A stretch of 20,000 nt of DNA from an uncultured virus (IMG/VR IMGVR_UViG_3300000558_000068) (taxonomy: Duplodnaviria; Heunggongvirae; Uroviricota; Caudoviricetes), in IMG/VR virus record IMGVR_UViG_3300000558_000068, positions 55,018 through 75,017 of that record; one strand, given 5' to 3'. Positions 2,426-18,976 of this stretch are shown piece after piece. The notes below the pieces were generated by a model, which saw only the letters and a program-made list of their open reading frames with translations, was not told the origin of the DNA and made no database searches. Position numbers and translations under genes: made by a program. Within the stretch, counting starts at the first letter, position 1, and every line of letters begins with the position of its first letter.

Positions 2426-2581
2426 ATGAAAAACAAAAAAGTAAATAAAGTTAAATTTCTAGATAAAAAGGAATTAGCCAAGGAACAAATTAATGATCCC
2501 GATTACAGACTTAAAGCCATTCAAAAATATTACGGCGATAAGTTTACTATATCTTGTAGTCGTTGTCACCATTGTAGATAA
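2426..2581 (+). CDS. Small 51-aa protein ending in CSRCHHCR (putative metal-binding)
   Basis: Hand translation: MKNKKVNKVKFLDKKELAKEQINDPDYRLKAIQKYYGDKFTISCSRCHHCR*. Starts 6 nt after the previous stop and fills the gap. Absent from the ORF track (its shortest ORF is 61 aa). Confidence 0.6.
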   Translation: MKNKKVNKVKFLDKKELAKEQINDPDYRLKAIQKYYGDKFTISCSRCHHCR

Positions 2582-2855
2582 GCGATAAGTTACTATCAAT
2601 CTTGTAACAAATATGATCAAAATTCGTTACATCTTCCTCGCTTAAAATAAACCATTCACTTACTGCTCTCTTATAATTCCACAATCTATGTATAACTGCT
2701 TCGACCATATAAGGATTTTGGCATGGAACGGATTTAATAAGTTCCAATATGTTACCATTACCGGTTTGATTTTCTTTTAATCGTTTATTGACATGTTTAG
2801 ATACGCCAATTTTATACAAATCCGAATCGTCCTGATGTATTAAGTAAACATTCAT
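2547..2855 (-). CDS. T5orf172/MUG113 family (GIY-YIG-like) protein
   Basis: VYLI..LYKIGVSK..KRLK..QTGN..E..IHR..R..EWF pattern. Confidence 0.85.
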   Translation of the reverse strand: MNVYLIHQDDSDLYKIGVSKHVNKRLKENQTGNGNILELIKSVPCQNPYMVEAVIHRLWNYKRAVSEWFILSEEDVTNFDHICYKIDSNLSLIYNGDNDYKI

Positions 2856-3536: not shown

Positions 3537-6437
3537 TTATTTTTTTAATTTCTGAATAACACTTTTAAATATATCATCGTCTAAATTTGAATCCCCCATT
3601 ACTTGATCAATAACTTTAATTTTCTTCATAAGTGCGTGATATAGATGGAGATCCAGAGTTTCTGATACTATGTTATAATACACGTTTACCACCTTTTTAG
3701 TTCCAATACGATAACACCTATCTTGTGCTTGAAGATGATCTGCCGGCAACCAAGATAAATCATTAAAGACAACCAATTCGGCCGCTGTTAATGTAATACC
3801 AACACCTGCAGATATAATATTACCAATAAATACCTTAACATTGGGATCGTTTTGGAATCGTTCGATAGATTCCTCACGATTATTTTTTGACATTGGCCCG
3901 TGGTGTATAACTGACATTTTACCGAAATGATTGTGTAATTGTAATAGAGGCTCAGTGAAATTGGTAAAGATAACAACCTTTTTACCTTCTTCTATTGCGT
4001 TTTCAACGATTTCAATGGTAAATTCAACTTTAGATAGAGCTAAAAATTGACGTAATTTAACTAATTGTGACAAATGAAGAGCGAGATTTACAGTTTTTTG
4101 ATGATCAGCCCATGTTTGATATTCCCCAACAATTTTTTGGTATTCTTCCTTACATTGTAATGGGAGATAAATGGGCTGTACAATCTTTTCTGGTAGATCT
4201 AATATATCTTCTTTTCTTCGTCTTAAAATAACATCTTGGGTACAATTATGCAATTCTTCTAAATTACTAGCACCTTTGGTATCCCATATTTTCCTCCCAC
4301 CCCTACCATAAAATTGTTTACCAGCACAATACCGGATAACATAGCCCATCCAACTACGGGCCAGACGATGTTTACATAAGGCTAATAAATTATACAAATC
4401 AATTGGCCGATTAGTAACTGGCGTCCCAGTCAATAACCATACACGTTTAATGTTTTTGGATAAATCATTAAATATTTTAGCGCGCTGGCTTTGTTGGTTT
4501 TTTGTATAGTGGCAATTACTAACCAAAATGTTATTAGCAAAATAATTATGATTGTCGTTTATTTCGAGATTATAAACTGTTGTATTTTTTGAGCCACCAG
4601 ATTTGGGTCTTGATCTACTTCTTTGTTCCAAAACCTCAACACTTTCCACCCTAACGCATTTAACACTTCCGTTTTGCGATGATCCAAAAATTTCCATTTT
4701 TTCATTTTGTGGGTATTTCCATCGATTTCGATTGATATTTTTAATTCGGGATGAGCAATATCTGGCGAATAATGGAAGGGTAAAGAAGGAAACTGGTCGA
4801 AGACTTCTTTTGTTTTTATTGGAAACTCTAACATCCATCGATGATCCATCTGAAATAGTATATCGTATATTATTTTTTGTTGTTTGGTTATCTGACCGTT
4901 TCCACCACGAGATAAAAATGTTCGGCCTTTCATTTTTTCCGTCATTTTTTCTTTCACGCCCGGTTTTGACATTAGCGGATCGTTTTTTAATCGGTCTGAT
5001 AATTGTTGTATTAATTCTGGCCTTTTTTGAAAAGTCAATTTGTGTGTAATTGATGACTTTTGATAAACTGTTTCGTTGTGTATCTTTGCAAATTTCTCTG
5101 GCTGTCTCATTGTCCCTTTTGCTGAACAAGATCGACAACAAAATCGTCTTTTGTCTGACGGTTTTTTTGTAAATTCGATTCCACATTCTTGACAAATTTG
5201 TATAATTCGTGGCCTTTTTCTTTTTAATGTGTTTGATATTCGTATATTCACTTCCTGATCTCTGGATGAGCAAAGAATCGAACAGTGTTTGCTTTTGTTG
5301 TATTTTTGCCGCTTGGTTAATTCCTTCTGACAAACCAAACAATGTGTCGTTTGGTTTAATTTTATTTGCTTTGACATATCCTTCATTTTTAATAAATATT
5401 TTATGGTTTGGTGTGCATTCGATAATTAATCCGTTATTTGTTTTTATTTTTAATAGTCTGTTGCTTGTTTCATTTTTTATCCATCTAATGATTTTTTTAT
5501 GCTCTAATTTATTTGTTTTTAAATTATAACTTAATATTTGTACATTCAAATTATTTTCAACAATGTCACCTATTTTCATTTGCCCGAATTCGGTTGTTAC
5601 TAAAGTATTATATGTAAAACACTCATCCCCAATAATTATATCAAAATTTTCATCTACTATTGTCGTAATTAATAACTGATCTTTTTTTCTTTTATCCGGA
5701 ACTGTATGGAAATTTTTAAGAATATCATAATTAACTATTGTCCATTTCCCGCCCGATATCCATTCACTTCCATTAATGATATTAATTTGCCGTGTAGATT
5801 CTAACATTTCGATTTCTTTTTTCCAGTTTAATTTTAACGATGCTGGGCACACAATTAATATCTTTTCTGATTTAGACTCTATCGATGCAACAATTGATTC
5901 ATAGCTTTTTCCTAACCCGCAATCGTCAGCTAATATAAACCTATCATTCTCTAATAACTTAATAATACCTTCAATTTGATATTTATATGGTTTTCTTTCA
6001 TAGTTATCCCAATGGTCTTCCGAGAATTCTATTTTATTTATTGCTTTGGGTTTAATTATTGAATGTTTTGGTATCCACAAGTCCACACATTTATCATCTT
6101 CCCAAATCTTTCCCCATATATGAATAGCCTTATCTGTATTTGATAATAGTTTTTGAATGTATATCTTGGTTGGTTTCTCTACACATAAAAATTTCTTTTG
6201 TAATTCTTCTCCACAATAACCATCAATATTGTACCACTTATTAATTCCTATTACTTTCTTATCATAATTCTTAACAACGTATTCAGATATTTTTCGCCCA
6301 AATGTAGTTTCACCATTAAGAACCCGGTTTTTTAATATAAGCAAGAAATTGTTATTACCACTATAATCTTTTAAAATGGTAATAGCACGTTTTTCAACTG
6401 GCTGGTATTTTAGCTCGTTAATTTGACTTTCATCCAT
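3537..6437 (-). CDS. SNF2/HARP-like helicase precursor containing an intein (966 aa; about 597 aa after splicing)
   Basis: Motifs: I ILADDCGLGKS, Ia VCPASLKLNW, II DE/CH split by the intein, III LTGTP, IV VVIFT, V GVGITLTAA, VI QAQDRCYRIG. Start moved to the ATG at 6437 (MDESQ) because the longer ORF overlaps the neck gene on the opposite strand. Confidence 0.92.
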   Translation of the reverse strand: MDESQINELKYQPVEKRAITILKDYSGNNNFLLILKNRVLNGETTFGRKISEYVVKNYDKKVIGINKWYNIDGYCGEELQKKFLCVEKPTKIYIQKLLSNTDKAIHIWGKIWEDDKCVDLWIPKHSIIKPKAINKIEFSEDHWDNYERKPYKYQIEGIIKLLENDRFILADDCGLGKSYESIVASIESKSEKILIVCPASLKLNWKKEIEMLESTRQINIINGSEWISGGKWTIVNYDILKNFHTVPDKRKKDQLLITTIVDENFDIIIGDECFTYNTLVTTEFGQMKIGDIVENNLNVQILSYNLKTNKLEHKKIIRWIKNETSNRLLKIKTNNGLIIECTPNHKIFIKNEGYVKANKIKPNDTLFGLSEGINQAAKIQQKQTLFDSLLIQRSGSEYTNIKHIKKKKATNYTNLSRMWNRIYKKTVRQKTILLSILFSKRDNETAREICKDTQRNSLSKVINYTQIDFSKKARINTTIIRPIKKRSANVKTGRERKNDGKNERPNIFISWWKRSDNQTTKNNIRYTISDGSSMDVRVSNKNKRSLRPVSFFTLPLFARYCSSRIKNINRNRWKYPQNEKMEIFGSSQNGSVKCVRVESVEVLEQRSRSRPKSGGSKNTTVYNLEINDNHNYFANNILVSNCHYTKNQQSQRAKIFNDLSKNIKRVWLLTGTPVTNRPIDLYNLLALCKHRLARSWMGYVIRYCAGKQFYGRGGRKIWDTKGASNLEELHNCTQDVILRRRKEDILDLPEKIVQPIYLPLQCKEEYQKIVGEYQTWADHQKTVNLALHLSQLVKLRQFLALSKVEFTIEIVENAIEEGKKVVIFTNFTEPLLQLHNHFGKMSVIHHGPMSKNNREESIERFQNDPNVKVFIGNIISAGVGITLTAAELVVFNDLSWLPADHLQAQDRCYRIGTKKVVNVYYNIVSETLDLHLYHALMKKIKVIDQVMGDSNLDDDIFKSVIQKLKK
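4559..5377 (-). CDS. Zn-finger + DUF559/Vsr-like PD-(D/E)xK endonuclease nested in the +1 frame of the intein (alternative start 5386)
   Basis: Two CxxC..CSxxC/CCxxC Zn-ribbon units, a NUMOD3-like KEKMTEKMKG segment, and C-terminal PDIA..ISIEIDGNTH..D..K...L..LGWKVLRFWN.EV typical of DUF559. TATTTAT lies 14 nt upstream of the ATG at 5377. Confidence 0.88.
   Translation of the reverse strand: MSKQIKLNQTTHCLVCQKELTKRQKYNKSKHCSILCSSRDQEVNIRISNTLKRKRPRIIQICQECGIEFTKKPSDKRRFCCRSCSAKGTMRQPEKFAKIHNETVYQKSSITHKLTFQKRPELIQQLSDRLKNDPLMSKPGVKEKMTEKMKGRTFLSRGGNGQITKQQKIIYDILFQMDHRWMLEFPIKTKEVFDQFPSLPFHYSPDIAHPELKISIEIDGNTHKMKKWKFLDHRKTEVLNALGWKVLRFWNKEVDQDPNLVAQKIQQFIISK
5392..5398 (-). promoter_or_regulatory. 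TATTTAT motif (putative phage late promoter) 14 nt upstream of the nested endonuclease ATG
   Basis: Minus strand reads aaTATTTATtaaaaatgaaggatATG. Spacing matches the motif copies before 6482, 16125 and 18991. Confidence 0.55.
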
Positions 6438-6442
6438 ACAAA

Positions 6443-6467
6443 ATAAATATAATTGACGGATATTTAT
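6443..6467. promoter_or_regulatory. Divergent pair of TATTTAT motifs between the helicase (-) and neck gene (+)
   Basis: gaTATTTATt at 6461-6467 (+), 14 nt before ATG 6482. ATAAATA at 6443-6449 is TATTTAT on (-), 5 nt before ATG 6437. Confidence 0.55.
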
Positions 6468-6481
6468 TGTAAAGATTAAAA

Positions 6482-7000
6482 ATGAGTCAAAACATTGTGC
6501 CAATAAACAGAAATTCGAAATTCTACGGACTAAATGACATGCAAACAGAGATAAACATGGGTAGGGAATATATCGAGGGTGACATAGATTTTCGTGTTGT
6601 CTTATACCGGGTTGATCATGAAAAAACAAACACGGACGATTTATATGGTGAAGTTGAAGCCTATCAAATAAAATATAAATCACCAATAGAATTAAGTTGC
6701 TCAGTATCGTTAAAACCAAAACAAAATAAACAATATGGGACTAACGCATCACTAATTAGAGAAGAATGGGGTAATCTTGAATTTAACGTGTATGAAGAAC
6801 AATTAAAAGAACTTGATATTGAGATTAATAAAGGAGACTACGTTGGATATCCTGTCCGCGAGAATTTTTTTAAGTATTTTAGCGTGGTTGATAATGATAA
6901 GGTTAATGATGACACAACCAGATTATTGGGATTGAAAAAAGGGTTCTATCGTCATATCGTGTGTACACCAACAGATAACAGCGAATTTATGGTTAATTAA
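6482..7000 (+). CDS. Neck / head-closure protein (T4 gp14-like)
   Basis: VVLYRVD..T..DDLYGE...Y..P.E pattern typical of gp14-like proteins; position upstream of the tail terminator and sheath. Confidence 0.65.
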   Translation: MSQNIVPINRNSKFYGLNDMQTEINMGREYIEGDIDFRVVLYRVDHEKTNTDDLYGEVEAYQIKYKSPIELSCSVSLKPKQNKQYGTNASLIREEWGNLEFNVYEEQLKELDIEINKGDYVGYPVRENFFKYFSVVDNDKVNDDTTRLLGLKKGFYRHIVCTPTDNSEFMVN

Positions 7001-7457: not shown

Positions 7458-8480
7458 GTGGAAAACTTACAAGAAGAAATTAATAGAACAAAGATTATTA
7501 GAAATATTTTATTAGAATATCATGGAGTTCAGTTAGATATCAATAAATTAACAAATGAAGTAACTGATGGCGTTGTTAATAAATTATCTAATGCATTCGC
7601 CGGGTTTCAATTTGACGAAACTTATAATGTTGGTCAAATATTTAAAACAGATGAAATAGTTGAACAAAACACTAAAATTGATAATGTTGTGGTTAAAGTT
7701 GATATAACAAAAACTAATAAATTTTTGGTGGATGGTGGATTGGCGGCGGAGCAAACAGAAAAAAAGGATAACGGATTGTGTAATGTACTTTTAAATCTGG
7801 AAATCTGTGTTAATGATGACAATTTTTCTTTACTTAGAACTAAAATATTATCTGTTATTTCACACGAACTAAATCATGCTTTTAAAGTTGTTGAAGTTAT
7901 AAATAAAAAATCAAAATCATTAACTTACAACTCGGCAGTGAAATTAACCGGGTTTGGACTTATAACAAAATTAAAAGATTATCCCCTGTTGCAAGAATTT
8001 TTACATATGTTTTATTTGTCTTTATCTGATGAAATTAATGCTAGGGTTCAACAAACATATTCAGAACTACAAACAATAACATCAAATGATTATAACGACA
8101 CAATACGGCAGTTACTACAATTCAATCCACTAAATGATGCTAAAAAAATGATGCATTATAATGTTAAAGATATTTATTTGCTTGATCCAAACTTTTTAAA
8201 CTATTTCATTCACGAGTTCAACAATAACTTAGAGTATTGTGCAGAGAAAGATGGTATAGAATTAAGAACAAAATTAGGAATTAATAGTTTTTTTAATTAT
8301 TGGGAATATGTTATTAAAGGTAGGGGAATAATACTGTATCATAAAATATTAAGATTAGTTGCGGATAAACATGAAGTATCCGATAATGCTCTAATGAAAA
8401 AAATAAATAAAAAAACGTTAAATGAAATCACCGGAGATGCATATAACATTTTTAATAGATATGATGAAGATTACCATTAA
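7458..8480 (+). CDS. HExxH zincin-like protein, paralog of 790..1773, with NLQEEI leader
   Basis: GTG start; LLEYHG.Q.DI, VISHELNHAF, MFYL.L..EINARVQ, PLNDAKKM, SF..YW. Confidence 0.72.
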   Translation: MENLQEEINRTKIIRNILLEYHGVQLDINKLTNEVTDGVVNKLSNAFAGFQFDETYNVGQIFKTDEIVEQNTKIDNVVVKVDITKTNKFLVDGGLAAEQTEKKDNGLCNVLLNLEICVNDDNFSLLRTKILSVISHELNHAFKVVEVINKKSKSLTYNSAVKLTGFGLITKLKDYPLLQEFLHMFYLSLSDEINARVQQTYSELQTITSNDYNDTIRQLLQFNPLNDAKKMMHYNVKDIYLLDPNFLNYFIHEFNNNLEYCAEKDGIELRTKLGINSFFNYWEYVIKGRGIILYHKILRLVADKHEVSDNALMKKINKKTLNEITGDAYNIFNRYDEDYH

Positions 8481-9663: not shown

Positions 9664-10071
9664 TTACCTTTTAAAGTTACGGTTAAAAATCTTTTCATTC
9701 CCTTGTGGTTGTGGAAACATCGCAAGGGATAATGATAAGTCTTTTAGCTTTGTATTCTGTAACATCACACTTTGTATTATCATCTGTATTTGTTTGTGTT
9801 TCAACCCAAATTTGGATTCAAAAACGGTAGTTATTTTATCATCATTTATCCACAACTCATTAGACATTCGATTAAATGTTAGATAATTTTTTTTATTGAT
9901 TTGAAAATGAATATTATTTGGGTTATTTTTGTCGTGTATTGCTGTCATTTGGCTTAACAATTTCGTAAACCAAGTTATTGCGGTGGTTACGTTCTTGTTT
10001 GGTGTGTTTAAACCTTCAGATACACCCATTAATTTCTTAGATCTTTGTATTTCTTCTTGTAAATTTTTCAT
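9664..10071 (-). CDS. Hypothetical protein with NLQEEIQRSKKLMG leader; similar to the C-half of 1760..2419
   Basis: 135 aa; gaTATTTATag upstream at 10087-10093. Confidence 0.75.
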   Translation of the reverse strand: MKNLQEEIQRSKKLMGVSEGLNTPNKNVTTAITWFTKLLSQMTAIHDKNNPNNIHFQINKKNYLTFNRMSNELWINDDKITTVFESKFGLKHKQIQMIIQSVMLQNTKLKDLSLSLAMFPQPQGNEKIFNRNFKR

Positions 10072-10086
10072 AACATTAAGTTTCCT

Positions 10087-10093
10087 ATAAATA
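10087..10093 (-). promoter_or_regulatory. TATTTAT motif (putative late promoter)
   Basis: gaTATTTATaggaaacttaatgttATG, 15 nt to the start. Confidence 0.55.
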
Positions 10094-11213: not shown

Positions 11214-11265
11214 TATAAATATCTTTTGATTGGAATATTCTTTTGATGTTTTACGCATATTTATA
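11214..11265. promoter_or_regulatory. Divergent TATTTATA motifs for the RHH gene (-) and tail sheath (+)
   Basis: TATAAATA at 11214-11221 (gaTATTTATA on -) and caTATTTATA at 11258-11265 (+). Confidence 0.55.
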
Positions 11266-14290: not shown

Positions 14291-15343
14291 ATGACAAAAC
14301 AGAAAATTTACCGAATAAACGAAAATCAGTTAAAAGTAATTGTGGAGAGCCAAAAGAGTTCTCCACAACTACAAACTGAAGTATTAGATAGTTTAGCAAG
14401 TGGGTTTGGTAAATTATTAACCTTTACCTTTAAACAATCAGTAAACGCCTTTAAATACTTTAGTGGTATTGGTGTTAATGTTTTTATTGGTAACAAGTAT
14501 ACGTCTACCGGAAAAGTAAAATTAAAAAAGAACAACCCATTATCACCATTATCACTTTACAACGCTAAATTAACATCCTTACCGCAGGGATATGAAAAGC
14601 TATTTACAACAATTTCTACAGGTATTAAAGGGGTATCAGAATCCCAACCTAAAGACGCAAAACCGGTATCTTACGAATCTATATTAAAAAACTTAAAATT
14701 TGACAACACAAATGGCATAACATATCCAATAAAGTTTGAATTTCAGAATCTAGATAAGAAAGCTAAAGAGAATTCTGTAATAATGATGACAACTTGGGGA
14801 CTAATATTTAATGTTGTCTGTGCAGGTCAAGCGTCCGAGCCAAGCACAATGACTTTTAATTTAGTTAGTTTTCAATCACAAGGCCCATCGTTCGATTTGT
14901 TTTTAAAGCAATTAGCTCAAAGTGAAAAAAAGGATCAAGAACTTATAAAATCACTTTCTAAATTTAATACAACTGGCAGGGATACTTTTAGTTTAATTTT
15001 CAGTAATGCTAGCCAATCTCGTAAATTTGAAACGGTAATGGCTAAGCAAATTCAAGATCATATGAAAGTATTGATTGGTCATTTAAATTCAGATATGGGG
15101 GTAAAAAAAGCCATACAAGTTCCAACAATAAAAGTTACTGTCGCTAACACTTTGATTGGTGACGTTAAATTACAAGCAGAAAATCAAAAGGCTCCACCGG
15201 TTGACGAAATAGATGATGATATTGAAGAAATACAAAGACAAATTAAACTTTATCAAGATCAAGACCAGTATAGAAGCTATATACAAGATTTAAATACAAT
15301 ATTAAATAAACTAGCATTAAAAAGAAAAGAAATAAGTAAATAA
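14291..15343 (+). CDS. Hypothetical protein between sheath and tube genes
   Basis: 350 aa, 2 nt after the sheath stop; leader KIYRINENQLKVIVE; coiled-coil C-terminus. Confidence 0.75.
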   Translation: MTKQKIYRINENQLKVIVESQKSSPQLQTEVLDSLASGFGKLLTFTFKQSVNAFKYFSGIGVNVFIGNKYTSTGKVKLKKNNPLSPLSLYNAKLTSLPQGYEKLFTTISTGIKGVSESQPKDAKPVSYESILKNLKFDNTNGITYPIKFEFQNLDKKAKENSVIMMTTWGLIFNVVCAGQASEPSTMTFNLVSFQSQGPSFDLFLKQLAQSEKKDQELIKSLSKFNTTGRDTFSLIFSNASQSRKFETVMAKQIQDHMKVLIGHLNSDMGVKKAIQVPTIKVTVANTLIGDVKLQAENQKAPPVDEIDDDIEEIQRQIKLYQDQDQYRSYIQDLNTILNKLALKRKEISK

Positions 15344-15378
15344 TTATAATAACTAAGAGAAAAAAATAAACTAGATAC

Positions 15379-15386
15379 TATTTATA
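15379..15386 (+). promoter_or_regulatory. TATTTATA motif upstream of tail tube
   Basis: acTATTTATAtag in the 139-nt intergenic region. Confidence 0.5.
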
Positions 15387-15482
15387 TAGAAATAAATTAC
15401 TAAGTCCAGTTCTAGAGAGGGTCCTTAGAATATAAGATAAAAAAATGAAAAGTCAATAACAAAGCAATAAAAAAATAAAATT

Positions 15483-15971
15483 ATGGCAAATCTATTATTA
15501 AACATGCCCATCAATTACGAACCAAAAAAACAAAATAGGTTCATATTTTCCTTTCCAAGTAATATGGGAATTCAATCTTGGTTCGTGGTCAGCTCAAAAA
15601 GACCCAATATAACCATAGATCCAATTGAGATACCTTTTTTAAATACCTCAACATGGGTAGCTGGTAGATTTAAATGGGAAGCGATTGACATTACATTGAG
15701 AGATCCTATTGGTCCTTCAGCATCACAAGCAATTATGGAATGGGTTCGCCTACATGCTGAATCTGTAACAGGTCGTATGGGATACGCCGCAGGCTATAAG
15801 AAAAATGTTACCCTTGAAATGCTTGATCCTACCGGTGTTGTAATTGAACGCTGGAAATTGGTTAATACAATGTTAACTAGTTCTGATTTTGGGACATTAG
15901 ATTATAATTCTGGAGACCTTGCCGATATTACGATTAATCTTCAAATGGATCGTTGCATTCTCGTTTTTTAG
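15483..15971 (+). CDS. Tail tube protein (T4 gp19-like)
   Basis: YEPKKQNRF, RPNI, AGRFKWEAIDITLRD, EW, YKK.VTLEMLDP.G.V.E.W, FG.LDY. Follows the sheath gene. Confidence 0.92.
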   Translation: MANLLLNMPINYEPKKQNRFIFSFPSNMGIQSWFVVSSKRPNITIDPIEIPFLNTSTWVAGRFKWEAIDITLRDPIGPSASQAIMEWVRLHAESVTGRMGYAAGYKKNVTLEMLDPTGVVIERWKLVNTMLTSSDFGTLDYNSGDLADITINLQMDRCILVF

Positions 15972-16078: not shown

Positions 16079-16110
16079 TTGACAACCAAAACACATTTGC
16101 TTATATTTAT
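16079..16110 (+). promoter_or_regulatory. TTGACA-N17-TATATT sigma70-like promoter overlapping a TATTTAT motif
   Basis: TTGACA 16079-16084, TATATT 16102-16107, TATTTAT 16104-16110 (14 nt before ATG 16125). Confidence 0.55.
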
Positions 16111-16124
16111 GTAAAAGTGTGCCT

Positions 16125-17726
16125 ATGGATATGAATTATTTCATGACAGATAATCGATCTGGATATAAAACTAAAGAATTTTGGTTTAGTAAAAATCATC
16201 CGGAGGAATATCATCGAATACAAAATTATTTTAATTCATTGGGTTTGAGTGATAGCGGATTTAAAGAAAAAATTTGGATATACTATAATAATCTTAAAGA
16301 ACGCCCGAAATGTTTAACTTGTAATAAGGAAATAAAATTTGGCGATAGATTTGATCGGCCATATGGTGATTTTTGCTCAATTGATTGTGTTAATAGTAAT
16401 ATTCCAGAAATGTTAGTTAGAATAAAAAAAACTAATCAAAAAAAGTTTAATGTTGATTTTTATCCGAGCCACAAAGATTTTATAACTAAGAGGAAAAAAA
16501 CTAAGCTAGAACGTTATGGTGATGAAAACTATAACAACATGGACAAATGTAGAAAAACAAAACTTCAAAATCATGGTGATGAAAATTATAACAATATTGA
16601 TAAAATGAAAAACACCTGTTTGGAAAAATATGACGTAGATAATTTTTCCAAAACACAGCAATTTAAGATAATAATGTATGAATTTTTTTATAGTAAATAT
16701 AGTGATAAATATACATTTGATCTAAGTAAAAACACTAAAGATACTTGTACATTTTTATGTAAAAAACATGGTTATATAACAACAACAAAAAATTTATTTA
16801 GAGAACGTATAAGATATGACACAATTCCTTGTACTGAATGTAATCCTATTGGTTTTTCATCAACTAGTTCTGATCATTTACATCTTGTTACTAAACTTAA
16901 AGAAACGCCCGGACTTAATATAAAAGAAAATATTAAACATTTATTAAACGGAAAAAAGGAAATTGATATATTGATAAATAATAAATTGGGTGTTGAAGTT
17001 AATGGAATTTATTGGCATAGTGAGTTATTTGTGGACAGATATTATCATTTAAAAAAAATTACGGAAGCAAAACAAAATAACATACGTTTAATTCACTTTT
17101 TTGAAGACGAAATAAAATTTAAGTTGGATATTGTTAATTCGATAATATTAAATAGATTGGGATTAACAAAAAACAAAATTTATGCAAGGAATTGTAATAT
17201 TTGCGAGGTTAGTAAAAAAGATTGCTCGGAATTTTTAAACGAAAACCACATACAAGGAAATTGTAAAGGTAAATTTAAATACGGGTTATATCACAATAAT
17301 GAACTAATATCGTTGATGGTATTTTCAAAAAATCGATTGGGCGTTGGTACTATAAATCCGTCAAGTTACGAATTAATTAGATTTTGTAATAAGATAAATA
17401 CAAATGTTATTGGTGGAGCAAATAGACTATTCAAACATTTTATAAAAACAATCAGTCCCAATCATATTATAAGTTTTGCTGATTATAGATTATTTGATGG
17501 TGATCTCTATCAAAAGTTGGGTTTTGCATTTTTATATCAAACTGATCCTAATTATTGGTATGTTATTGGATTAAACAGATTTCATCGATTTAATTATAGG
17601 AAATCAATTTTAGTTAAACAGGGTTATGATAAAGATAAAACTGAAAAAGATATAATGCTAGAACGGAAAATTTATCGTATATATGACTGTGGTAATTTAA
17701 AGTTTGAGTGGAATAAATCAGATTAA
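16125..17726 (+). CDS. Free-standing Hef-like / PD-(D/E)xK homing endonuclease with Zn-binding and repeat domains
   Basis: CLTC..FCSIDC; three KTxLExYGxxN-type repeats; CKKHG..CTEC; EIDI..LGVEVNGIYWHS nuclease core; C-terminal ARNC..NHIQG..ELIRFC..VIGGA..SFAD..RIYDCG domain. ATG 16125 preferred over GTG 16119. Confidence 0.8.
   Translation: MDMNYFMTDNRSGYKTKEFWFSKNHPEEYHRIQNYFNSLGLSDSGFKEKIWIYYNNLKERPKCLTCNKEIKFGDRFDRPYGDFCSIDCVNSNIPEMLVRIKKTNQKKFNVDFYPSHKDFITKRKKTKLERYGDENYNNMDKCRKTKLQNHGDENYNNIDKMKNTCLEKYDVDNFSKTQQFKIIMYEFFYSKYSDKYTFDLSKNTKDTCTFLCKKHGYITTTKNLFRERIRYDTIPCTECNPIGFSSTSSDHLHLVTKLKETPGLNIKENIKHLLNGKKEIDILINNKLGVEVNGIYWHSELFVDRYYHLKKITEAKQNNIRLIHFFEDEIKFKLDIVNSIILNRLGLTKNKIYARNCNICEVSKKDCSEFLNENHIQGNCKGKFKYGLYHNNELISLMVFSKNRLGVGTINPSSYELIRFCNKINTNVIGGANRLFKHFIKTISPNHIISFADYRLFDGDLYQKLGFAFLYQTDPNYWYVIGLNRFHRFNYRKSILVKQGYDKDKTEKDIMLERKIYRIYDCGNLKFEWNKSD
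16494..16664 (+). repeat. Three 57-bp (19-aa) tandem repeats inside the endonuclease gene
   Basis: KKTKLERYGDENYNNMDKC / RKTKLQNHGDENYNNIDKM / KNTCLEKYDVDNFSKTQQF; GGTGATGAAAA at 16518 and 16575. Confidence 0.8.
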
Positions 17727-17828: not shown

Positions 17829-18794
17829 ATGCCAAACGAAAACAAACCAAGAATTAACTGGAACAATACTGGAGAAACGCCGCCTCCAAATGAATTTCAA
17901 TCTAATGAAACAGAGGACATCGATACAGATCAGTTACCAAAGCGATATGCCCAGTTCGATACTACTAAAGGGGCTAAGCCAAAATCTGAGCCAATAGAAC
18001 AAACAAGATACTCAGAATTTGATGAAAAGGCTTTTATGGGTCAGACGGGGTTTATTGAAGATAACGAACCATTTGATGTCATTGAGCTGCCCAGCAAGGG
18101 TTATTTCTATGCAAACAAAAAAACTCATTTAAGGGTTGGGTATTTAACAGCGGCAGATGAAAATATTTTAACATCTCCCAATTTAATTCAATCTGGAAAA
18201 GTTATTGATGTTTTGCTTCGTAAGAAAATTAAGGACCGGGATATTGAGGTTAGCAAACTTTTACCGGGAGATAGAACAGCTATTATGTTGTTTTTAAGGG
18301 CTACAGGATATGGTAAGGATTACGCAATAAACTTAACTGATCCATTGACCGGGGATGATTTTGAATATATTGTAGATCTGTCAACATTACCAACAAAAGA
18401 AATAACGGATATGCCTGACGCTAGTGGTGAATTTGTTTTTGAATTACCTCGCACAAAAAAGAATTCAAAAATCAGACTTTTAACTCCTGATGATGAAAAA
18501 AATATAACAGAAAGTGATGAAAAGAGAAAACAGTCTTATGGNGAAAATTATATATCAAACAGATTAACAATGCGTCTNGAACGTGCTATTGTTGAAATTG
18601 ATGGTAATCGGGANAAGTCGTTTATTGCTGAGTTNATTCAACAGATGCCNGCNTTTGATTCATTATCCGTTCGNAGTTTCTTATTAAAAATAGAGCCCGG
18701 AATAAACACATCAATCAAAGTAAAAGCGCCGTCAGGGGAAATTATTCAAACTAATGTTCCTTTTGGCCCTAGCTTTTTTTGGCCTAAACTCTGA
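17829..18794 (+). CDS. Tail assembly chaperone / baseplate hub assembly protein (T4 gp26-like)
   Basis: LPSKGYFY, LTAADENIL, L.PGDR.AI..FLRATGYG..Y, F.LP, FFWP end; acidic disordered N-extension; located between tube and tape measure. Confidence 0.75.
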   Translation: MPNENKPRINWNNTGETPPPNEFQSNETEDIDTDQLPKRYAQFDTTKGAKPKSEPIEQTRYSEFDEKAFMGQTGFIEDNEPFDVIELPSKGYFYANKKTHLRVGYLTAADENILTSPNLIQSGKVIDVLLRKKIKDRDIEVSKLLPGDRTAIMLFLRATGYGKDYAINLTDPLTGDDFEYIVDLSTLPTKEITDMPDASGEFVFELPRTKKNSKIRLLTPDDEKNITESDEKRKQSYXENYISNRLTMRXERAIVEIDGNRXKSFIAEXIQQMXXFDSLSVXSFLLKIEPGINTSIKVKAPSGEIIQTNVPFGPSFFWPKL

Positions 18795-18969: not shown

Positions 18970-18976
18970 TATTTAT
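18970..18976 (+). promoter_or_regulatory. TATTTAT motif (putative late promoter)
   Basis: gaTATTTATtaaaaacgtgattcATG, 14 nt to the start. Confidence 0.55.

Follow-up and report, generated by a model that had tools for sequence, protein, structure and literature searches.

We analysed a 20,000-nucleotide (nt) stretch of viral DNA, henceforth the window, which forms the final 20 kb of a 75,017-bp phage contig (IMG/VR record IMGVR_UViG_3300000558_000068; 31.7% G+C), and focused on a heptamer, TATTTAT, that lies within the codons of a helicase intein, directly ahead of a homing-endonuclease gene that overlaps the helicase gene in another reading frame. The contig, which CheckV estimated to be 23% complete, encodes T4-like tail sheath and tail tube proteins. 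The features central to the analysis are the following (aa: amino acids; ORF: open reading frame):

3537..6437, minus strand: SNF2-type helicase gene with an intein, 966 aa (PF00176, PF00271; phrog_62, 1.7e-93).
4515..5621, minus strand: the intein, 369 aa, helicase residues 273-641, with borders GDE/CFTYN...ILVSN/CHY (Pfam Intein_splicing, 3.7e-13).
4559..5386 (stop included), minus strand: nested ORF in the +1 frame, 275 aa from ATG 5386 or 272 aa from ATG 5377 (Pfam DUF559, 5.8e-14).
5388..5405, minus strand: helicase-frame codons CAT AAA ATA TTT ATT AAA (HKIFIK), whose H is the block-B His of TPNH (5414..5403).
5392..5398, minus strand: TATTTAT, 14 nt ahead of ATG 5377 and 5 nt ahead of the in-frame ATG 5386.

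The intein is inserted at the DE/CH motif of the helicase, and its hallmarks were all found in frame with the helicase: a block A Cys1, the block B motif TPNH, and a C-terminal Asn followed by Cys. Its penultimate residue is Ser (ILVSN/CHY), a position at which inteins usually carry His. The nested protein combines N-terminal, zinc-finger-like CxxC...CSxxC repeats with a C-terminal DUF559/Vsr-like nuclease, and the profile of its family matches PDB entry 3hrl, an endonuclease-like protein (1.1e-11). Its homologues comprise 100 called proteins at 30-63% identity, the closest of which (P0001, 63%) was not found among the viral contigs searched. Four residues (E220, D222, H226 and D235) are invariant in the nested family (26 sequences), and the window ORF keeps invariant residues including E220, D222 and H226. 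No chain of I-Bth0305I, which belongs to the EDxHD homing-endonuclease family, the named relative of Vsr-like/DUF559 nucleases, was among the 9 PDB matches obtained at E up to 1 in what was a sequence search only.

Both frames are open over the whole length of the nested ORF. Specifically, the helicase frame has 0 stops in 275 codons, as compared with 0.139 stops per codon in the same relative frame of the contig's 86 genes (the starts of which were called as those of the longest ORFs with an ATG-only caller, not a trained gene finder), where the longest open run was 47 codons; the probability of 275 stop-free codons is thus about 1e-18. Contigs from a second sample cover positions 4217-4839, 4874-5526 and 5121-5650 with 0 differences and 0 gaps, and reproduce both borders. 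Because of this identity and the 275 stop-free host codons, we rejected a sequencing or assembly frameshift as the source of the two frames. A fusion made by programmed frameshifting is likewise unlikely, since the TAA at 5428-5426 closes the nested frame, and in relatives stops occur within a few codons of the nested start.

The same layout recurs in relatives: of 80 metagenome loci, 65 have a host frame that runs across the endonuclease match, as do 47 of 48 viral loci. In Vibrio phages CP-T1 and K391, nested homologues occupy the +1 frame of genes annotated only as 'helicase'. We therefore regard the nested endonuclease gene, on the sequence data, as real and overprinted. The original prediction had offered the TATTTAT motif as independent support for the ORF; it adds little, however, beside homology and the open second frame, which argue much more strongly that the ORF is real. 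More generally, we observed that the DUF559/Vsr-like family is overprinted on a large scale in the +1 frame of host genes, most of which bear inteins (loci L001, L002 and L012-L141), and that in many members the Tyr and Val codons within the block-B sequence G-Y-V (TAT G..) make up the nested start codon. ATG 5377 lies in just such G-Y-V codons (5381..5373), and the same ATG-in-GYV start is found in L013, L014, L021 and others. Further into the gene, a perfect 9-bp stem (AAACCAAAC ... GTTTGGTTT, 8-nt loop; 5332-5357, minus strand) begins 20 nt inside the nested ORF; as shuffled sequences yield 0.9 terminator-like hairpins of this kind and the region has 1, it may be due to chance, and the alignment suggests that it is not conserved in relatives.

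To characterise TATTTAT itself, we considered all of its copies in the contig and in related loci. The window holds 23 copies (12 on the plus and 11 on the minus strand) and the contig 70, against about 82 expected from base composition, so that the heptamer is not over-represented in total, yet its placement is clearly non-random. Fifteen of the 70 contig copies lie 0-50 nt ahead of the 86 called starts, a zone occupying 2.7% of positions (8.0-fold enrichment), and 6 of the 70 have an ATG exactly 14 nt downstream, as opposed to about 1.3 expected. Across 18 related loci the enrichment was 13.3-fold (44 of 157 copies 0-50 nt ahead of starts, in 2.1% of positions; binomial p 3e-36); there TATTTAT was the most enriched 7-mer, 43 of 116 genes had one, and spacings clustered at 4-7 and 13-15 nt. 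In L012, L013, L014 and L021, four AT-rich relatives whose helicases contain a homologous intein, TATTTAT likewise precedes the relatives' own genes. An alignment of 12 gene-associated sites showed additional information only beside the core (G-A before it, a run of A after it), with values near zero from -25 to -3 and no -35 element.

We then scored the contig with a weight matrix built from 15 gene-associated sites. The matrix also recovers sites on which it had not been trained: one is 75 nt ahead of the sheath gene, one 97 nt ahead of the tube gene and one 40 nt ahead of a small ORF. Overall, TATTTAT precedes head-tail adaptor-like, sheath, tube, tail-fibre-operon and tape-measure-like genes, and the adaptor-like site is kept in relatives. 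Sites in the window other than the intein copy include those below, among them the four that the original prediction had named, at 14 nt before 6482, 16125 and 18991 and 15 nt before 10071, all of which we found as described:

6461..6467, plus strand: TATTTAT 14 nt before ATG 6482 (acggaTATTTAT), the best-scoring site.
16104..16110, plus strand: TATTTAT 14 nt before ATG 16125, where a free-standing homing-endonuclease gene (16125-17726; phrog_3339, 1.2e-100) starts.
18970..18976, plus strand: TATTTAT 14 nt before ATG 18991 (sequence match).
10087..10093, minus strand: TATTTAT 15 nt before ATG 10071 (sequence match).
11258..11264, plus strand: TATTTAT 75 nt before ATG 11340 of the tail-sheath gene (score 17.0).
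15379..15385, plus strand: TATTTAT 97 nt before ATG 15483 of the tail-tube gene (score 13.0).
6443..6449, minus strand: TATTTAT 5 nt before ATG 6437 of the helicase gene, overlapping a sigma-70-like pair TTTACA-16-TATATT (6473..6446).

The distant sites before the sheath and tube genes fit a promoter better than a translation signal or an element locked to the start codon. Two of the listed sites have further features. The gene at 16125-17726 sits between the tail-tube and baseplate-hub genes, has a TTGACA upstream at sigma-70-like spacing, and forms no more than a weak hairpin around the motif (z -1.5). The divergent intergenic region between the helicase and the gene at 6482 carries the motif on both strands (6443-6467) as an inverted repeat, ATAAATA-11 nt-TATTTAT, and a helicase mRNA started from the TTTACA-16-TATATT pair would be leaderless or nearly so.

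The intein copy scored 10.8 and ranked 20 among 149,964 positions; of the 19 sites that outrank it, 16 are gene-upstream or intergenic (a partly circular count, as 12 of those 16 had trained the matrix) and the other 3 lack the exact core. Its position in the HKIFIK codons, exactly 14 nt before the +1-frame ATG at 5377, was correctly given in the original prediction, which did not list the second in-frame start, ATG 5386, 5 nt past the motif; the copy thus fits both modal spacing classes. The same bases are at once intein codons and a copy of the recurrent motif. A scan of the minus strand found no sigma-70-type -35/-10 pair at the intein site, and no hairpin that would sequester a ribosome-binding site (RBS) was predicted around the motif (minimum free energy -1.2 kcal/mol over 5345-5430, minus strand; z +1.4 relative to shuffles).

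We next compared the region with related inteins. Early scans of viral contigs had returned one weak locus for each single-protein query and four for a three-sequence alignment, and a blastn search of the helicase region against a phage collection gave no match; the final comparison, with viral contigs added, covered 27 loci with 20 distinct 151-mers, the window included. All statistics on this clade take related sequences as independent and ignore shared ancestry, which makes their p-values optimistic and the tests suggestive, not decisive. In 14 of the 20 distinct inteins, TATTTAT is found 44 nt before the nested ATG, 30 nt upstream of the position it has in the window, in the codons of G-[VLI]-F-I-E and outside block B. 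The window is the only one of the 20 with TATTTAT at -14, and at -44 it has TAATTAT (5428..5422) in the following context:

5418..5435, minus strand: AAC GGA TTA ATT ATC GAA (NGLIIE), a degraded form of the relatives' AACGGAnTATTTATAGA element; its TAATTAT core holds the nested-frame stop TAA (5428..5426).

The remaining five have the motif at neither place: three (L014, L102 and L111) with an intact nested ORF and one mismatch at -44, and two with a truncated nested ORF (221 aa and 83 aa).

The -44 element is constrained at synonymous sites. The codon before its Phe ends in A in all 20 inteins, even though the amino acid may be I, V, L, E, K or R and the first base takes all four values; its Asn is AAC in 20 of 20, whereas the region's other Asn codons are AAC in 23 of 79 cases; and its Phe is TTT in 17 of 18, as compared with 14 of 21 elsewhere. 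A five-codon window over the element had the lowest third-position entropy of 37 such windows. In five full helicase genes, the motif occupied 4 of 5 peptide-compatible places near the nested start and 3 of 19 elsewhere (Fisher p 0.014). The original prediction had proposed to look for synonymous conservation of TATTTAT in homologous inteins, and such conservation exists, although not in block B: the heptamer is kept at -44 in 14 of the 19 other inteins. We consider the window's block-B copy, as judged from the alignment, to be a derived state (Y to F, V to I), and the loss of the -44 copy in the one intein with a copy at -14 suggests that the element was relocated.

As regards selection of the nested start, Shine-Dalgarno (SD) sites are not used in this phage group. 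In the contig, 4 of 86 genes have an SD site of -5 kcal/mol or better, as do 6% of control ATGs, and among AT-rich relatives 2 of 15 nested starts have one. SD-led internal initiation in the window was accordingly rejected, with an anti-SD duplex of +0.2 kcal/mol and no genome-wide SD signal. By contrast, SD sites of this strength precede 16 of the 27 nested starts in relatives with G+C of at least 0.40, versus 16% of control ATGs in the same host genes. Because of this enrichment, independent initiation is a trait of the nested endonuclease family, and since the window's contig has no such signal, start selection there must work differently from that in GC-richer relatives. In the contig, the 86 gene starts show an A-rich tract from -14 to -10, with A at -13 to -11 in 52-53 of 86.

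Taken with the motif, these observations lead to our best reading, which we hold with moderate confidence: an internal, -35-less promoter made of intein codons drives the nested endonuclease. TATTTAT at 5398-5392 would be a copy, set in the K-I-F-I codons, of the short promoter-like element of the phage group. A separate transcript would start a few bases downstream of it and carry the +1-frame DUF559/Vsr-like gene; its leader would be about 8 nt long if translation began at AUG 5377 and absent if it began at AUG 5386, and an AUG close to the 5' end would be a plausible means of selecting an internal start where SD sites are absent. The promoter-like element would accompany the nested gene in this intein clade, the relocated copy in the window happening to fall on the codons that follow the block-B His.

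The original prediction further held that the endonuclease is expressed late and independently of the helicase. We infer both from the association of the element with structural genes, its lack of a -35, the sigma-70-like promoter of the helicase, and a weak match to a late sigma factor. Specifically, a 236-aa protein encoded outside the window (genome positions 15119-15829, minus strand) has as its best PHROG phrog_234, the T4 gp55 late sigma factor (E 4.2e-5, 24.7 bits, a weak hit), and as its best Pfam match Sigma70_r2 (E 0.0021, below the cut-off), on a contig that is far from complete. If a gp55-like sigma read the element, its action would be late, and the intein copy would presumably fire with the others. 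A copy of TATTTAT also lies 17 nt before the next gene downstream of the one encoding this protein.

Several observations weigh against a promoter at this site. To begin with the motif in general, we infer its promoter identity from position only; and since ATAAATA, its reverse complement, shows enrichment ahead of genes too (5.3- and 7.0-fold), part of the signal reflects AT-rich intergenic composition and divergent promoters. As for the intein copy, it lacks the upstream G-A found in 8-9 of the 12 gene-associated sites and outscores only one of those 12. The run of A that follows it matches the A-rich context at -14 to -10 of the genome's start codons, and may for that reason reflect translation, not transcription. 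Moreover, the copy is without a counterpart in the rest of the clade: at the block-B site relatives have TATATGT, TATACGT, TCTATGT, TCTATAC and so on (encoding KIYVK or KFYTN), with scores from 3.8 to -3.2, and the Y-to-F and V-to-I changes that separate the window from them are conservative.

The strongest competing explanation, which we consider rather unlikely, is that the -14 heptamer is a functionless by-product of AT-rich IFI codons, and that ribosomes initiate internally on the helicase mRNA, at the G-Y-V AUG, to translate the nested gene. Given the IFI peptide and the genome's codon usage, TATTTAT is expected with a probability of 0.27, which, taken alone, argues for chance, as does the fact that no other of the 20 clade sequences has the copy. 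The SD sites at 16 of 27 nested starts of GC-richer relatives show that the family uses internal translation signals; the start region in the window is less structured than shuffled sequences (z +1.4), with A at -13 to -9 as in the genome's start context; and the three relatives with intact nested ORFs manage without an exact motif nearby, in one of them (L014) through a synonymous TTT-to-TTC change that breaks it. On the other hand, a by-product of codon choice would leave unexplained why synonymous sites in the -44 element of relatives are constrained, and why a perfect copy, at the modal spacing of -14, occurs in just the one clade member where no -44 motif is possible. It would also have to account for strong matches to the extended motif being otherwise almost confined to gene-upstream positions.

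A second alternative, to which we assign a low probability, is that the motif is functional but acts in RNA or translation, as the binding site of a regulator or as an SD-independent enhancer of initiation on the helicase transcript, and not as a promoter. The tight clustering of ATG spacings (4-7 and 13-15 nt) in a group without SD sites would be natural for such an element, yet the high-scoring copies of the sheath and tube genes (75 and 97 nt upstream) and those of the relatives' nested starts (44 nt upstream) are too far away to belong to an initiation region, and the -35-less, -10-like form together with the gp55-like sigma match fits transcription. Finally, although homing endonuclease genes commonly decay and two clade members have truncated nested ORFs, it is highly improbable that the nested ORF of the window is an unexpressed relic for which the upstream signal would be irrelevant, as it has its full length of 272-275 aa and the residues invariant in the family, and both frames are open and identical in a second sample.

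The original prediction had assigned the stretch three simultaneous roles (catalytic-block coding sequence, promoter and translation start region), and it is borne out in part, as far as a recurrent promoter-like motif, a modal spacing and a real nested gene are concerned; the placement in block B, however, is peculiar to the window. A more comprehensive version of the internal-promoter reading, which we put forward more tentatively than the promoter itself, is that the intein codons of an AT-rich clade without SD sites hold a selectively maintained promoter that moved from -44 to -14 in the window, and that the endonuclease is made from a 5'-proximal AUG and timed apart from the helicase.

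Relatives of this arrangement can be found among known mobile elements. In phage T4, the endonuclease I-TevI of the td intron is transcribed from its own late promoter inside the intron of an early gene, which separates the timing of the endonuclease from that of the host gene, the promoter lying in non-coding intron sequence. The element in the window is, by comparison, a protein intron, and its candidate promoter must also encode intein residues. As described in the main text of Dassa et al. 2009 (PMC2677866), fractured genes carry free-standing Vsr-like or GIY-YIG endonuclease genes between the halves of split inteins, and ten 5' hairpins of such endonuclease genes hold a T4-type late promoter element. 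The likeness to the window lies in a same-strand, Vsr-like gene inside the intein of a phage replication gene, which in the fractured genes is an independent gene with its own control region. There, however, the host gene is split into two parts, and a non-coding spacer of 27-51 nt contains the promoter, often within an RBS-sequestering hairpin (PMC2677866), whereas in the window the host frame is continuous, the candidate promoter consists of intein codons, its core is TATTTAT instead of TATAAATA, and no hairpin is predicted. The window therefore differs from the Aeh1 nrdA or fractured-gene type in lacking a predicted hairpin that would hold the promoter and mask the start. With T4-type late promoters the element of this phage group shares a short, AT-rich, -10-like sequence before structural genes and the absence of a -35 element; its TATTTAT does not, however, match the T4-type consensus TATAAATA, and TATAAAT is only 2.1-2.2-fold enriched before genes.

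Intein endonuclease ORFs that are out of frame or antisense have also been described (Gorbalenya 1998, as cited in the main text of bioRxiv 10.64898/2026.09.14.751524; bioRxiv 10.1101/2025.01.02.630785). The main-text accounts of such non-canonical inteins (10.1101/2025.01.02.630785 and, for cyanobacterial dnaX, 10.64898/2026.09.14.751524) include a LAGLIDADG ORF in the +2 frame, an EndoVII-like one in frame 3 and antisense VSR-like or LAGLIDADG ones, and in actinophage inteins Vsr-like endonuclease genes lie antisense (bioRxiv 10.1101/2025.01.02.630785). As in the window, splicing domain and endonuclease occupy different frames of the same DNA, with an unstructured in-frame filler linker and selection on the endonuclease frame; unlike the cases described in those texts, the window has a same-strand, +1-frame DUF559/Vsr-like gene. 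In its main text the dnaX preprint (10.64898/2026.09.14.751524) mentions only putative SD motifs for expression, and the word 'promoter' occurs 0 times in the main texts of bioRxiv 10.1101/2025.01.02.630785 and PMC11855218. The latter, in the part of the article covered here, reports the ShiLan domain, an out-of-frame HNH nuclease in a phage methylase, calls its expression an open question and proposes leaderless initiation. That case and the window share a hidden endonuclease in the second frame of an uninterrupted host gene, and differ in that ShiLan involves no intein, an HNH nuclease and, in the same part of PMC11855218, no search for a promoter. In the literature searched (main texts) we found no discussion of a promoter inside intein codons, and nothing relevant on the heptamer TATTTAT as a phage late promoter.

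Since Vsr-like split-intein endonucleases with their own late promoter and out-of-frame intein endonucleases are both already known, no new principle is involved here. The recent papers on out-of-frame endonucleases nonetheless leave the expression of the hidden frame open, as far as their main texts go: the two preprints name no more than possible RBSs, and PMC11855218 asks about it directly. If true, an internal promoter would explain, for one family, the expression of endonucleases that are out of frame with their intein, by giving the message a 5'-proximal AUG, a simple solution in a phage group without SD sites, and it would extend to inteins the own-late-promoter logic of intron-encoded and gene-fracturing endonucleases. 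Intein codons, promoter and, in the window, the 5' end of the endonuclease message would then coincide on one stretch of DNA, which would be under three simultaneous constraints; if false, the motif would be an accident of codon composition. A heptamer that 14 of 20 inteins conserve, with constraint at synonymous sites, together with a shifted copy in the intein that lost it, amounts to a concrete prediction of a promoter in splicing codons that is cheap to test.

The window also has several features unconnected with the intein. It contains 13 ambiguous bases (N) in two clusters, at 902-918 and 18542-18674, which give rise to X residues in the ORFs at 790-1773 and 17829-18794, with none near the intein site. 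The first ORF of the window begins with a signal peptide ending in ...GKAQ; this feature, like the missing SD sites and A-rich starts, is reminiscent of Bacteroidota hosts, which we take as no more than a presumption. Two proteins of about 330 aa, encoded at 790-1773 and 7458-8480 (both plus strand), look paralogous, sharing ...ILLEYHG... near the N-terminus and a zinc-peptidase-like HELxHAF motif, and the protein at 790-1773 matches DUF5700 (6e-06). The N-terminus of a 135-aa protein at 9664-10071 (minus strand), MKNLQEEI..., resembles the MENLQEEI... of the protein encoded from 7458. Lastly, a small T5orf172/MUG113 (GIY-YIG-like) gene at 2547-2855 (minus strand; 1.8e-10), downstream of the helicase operon, may represent a third mobile nuclease in these 20 kb.

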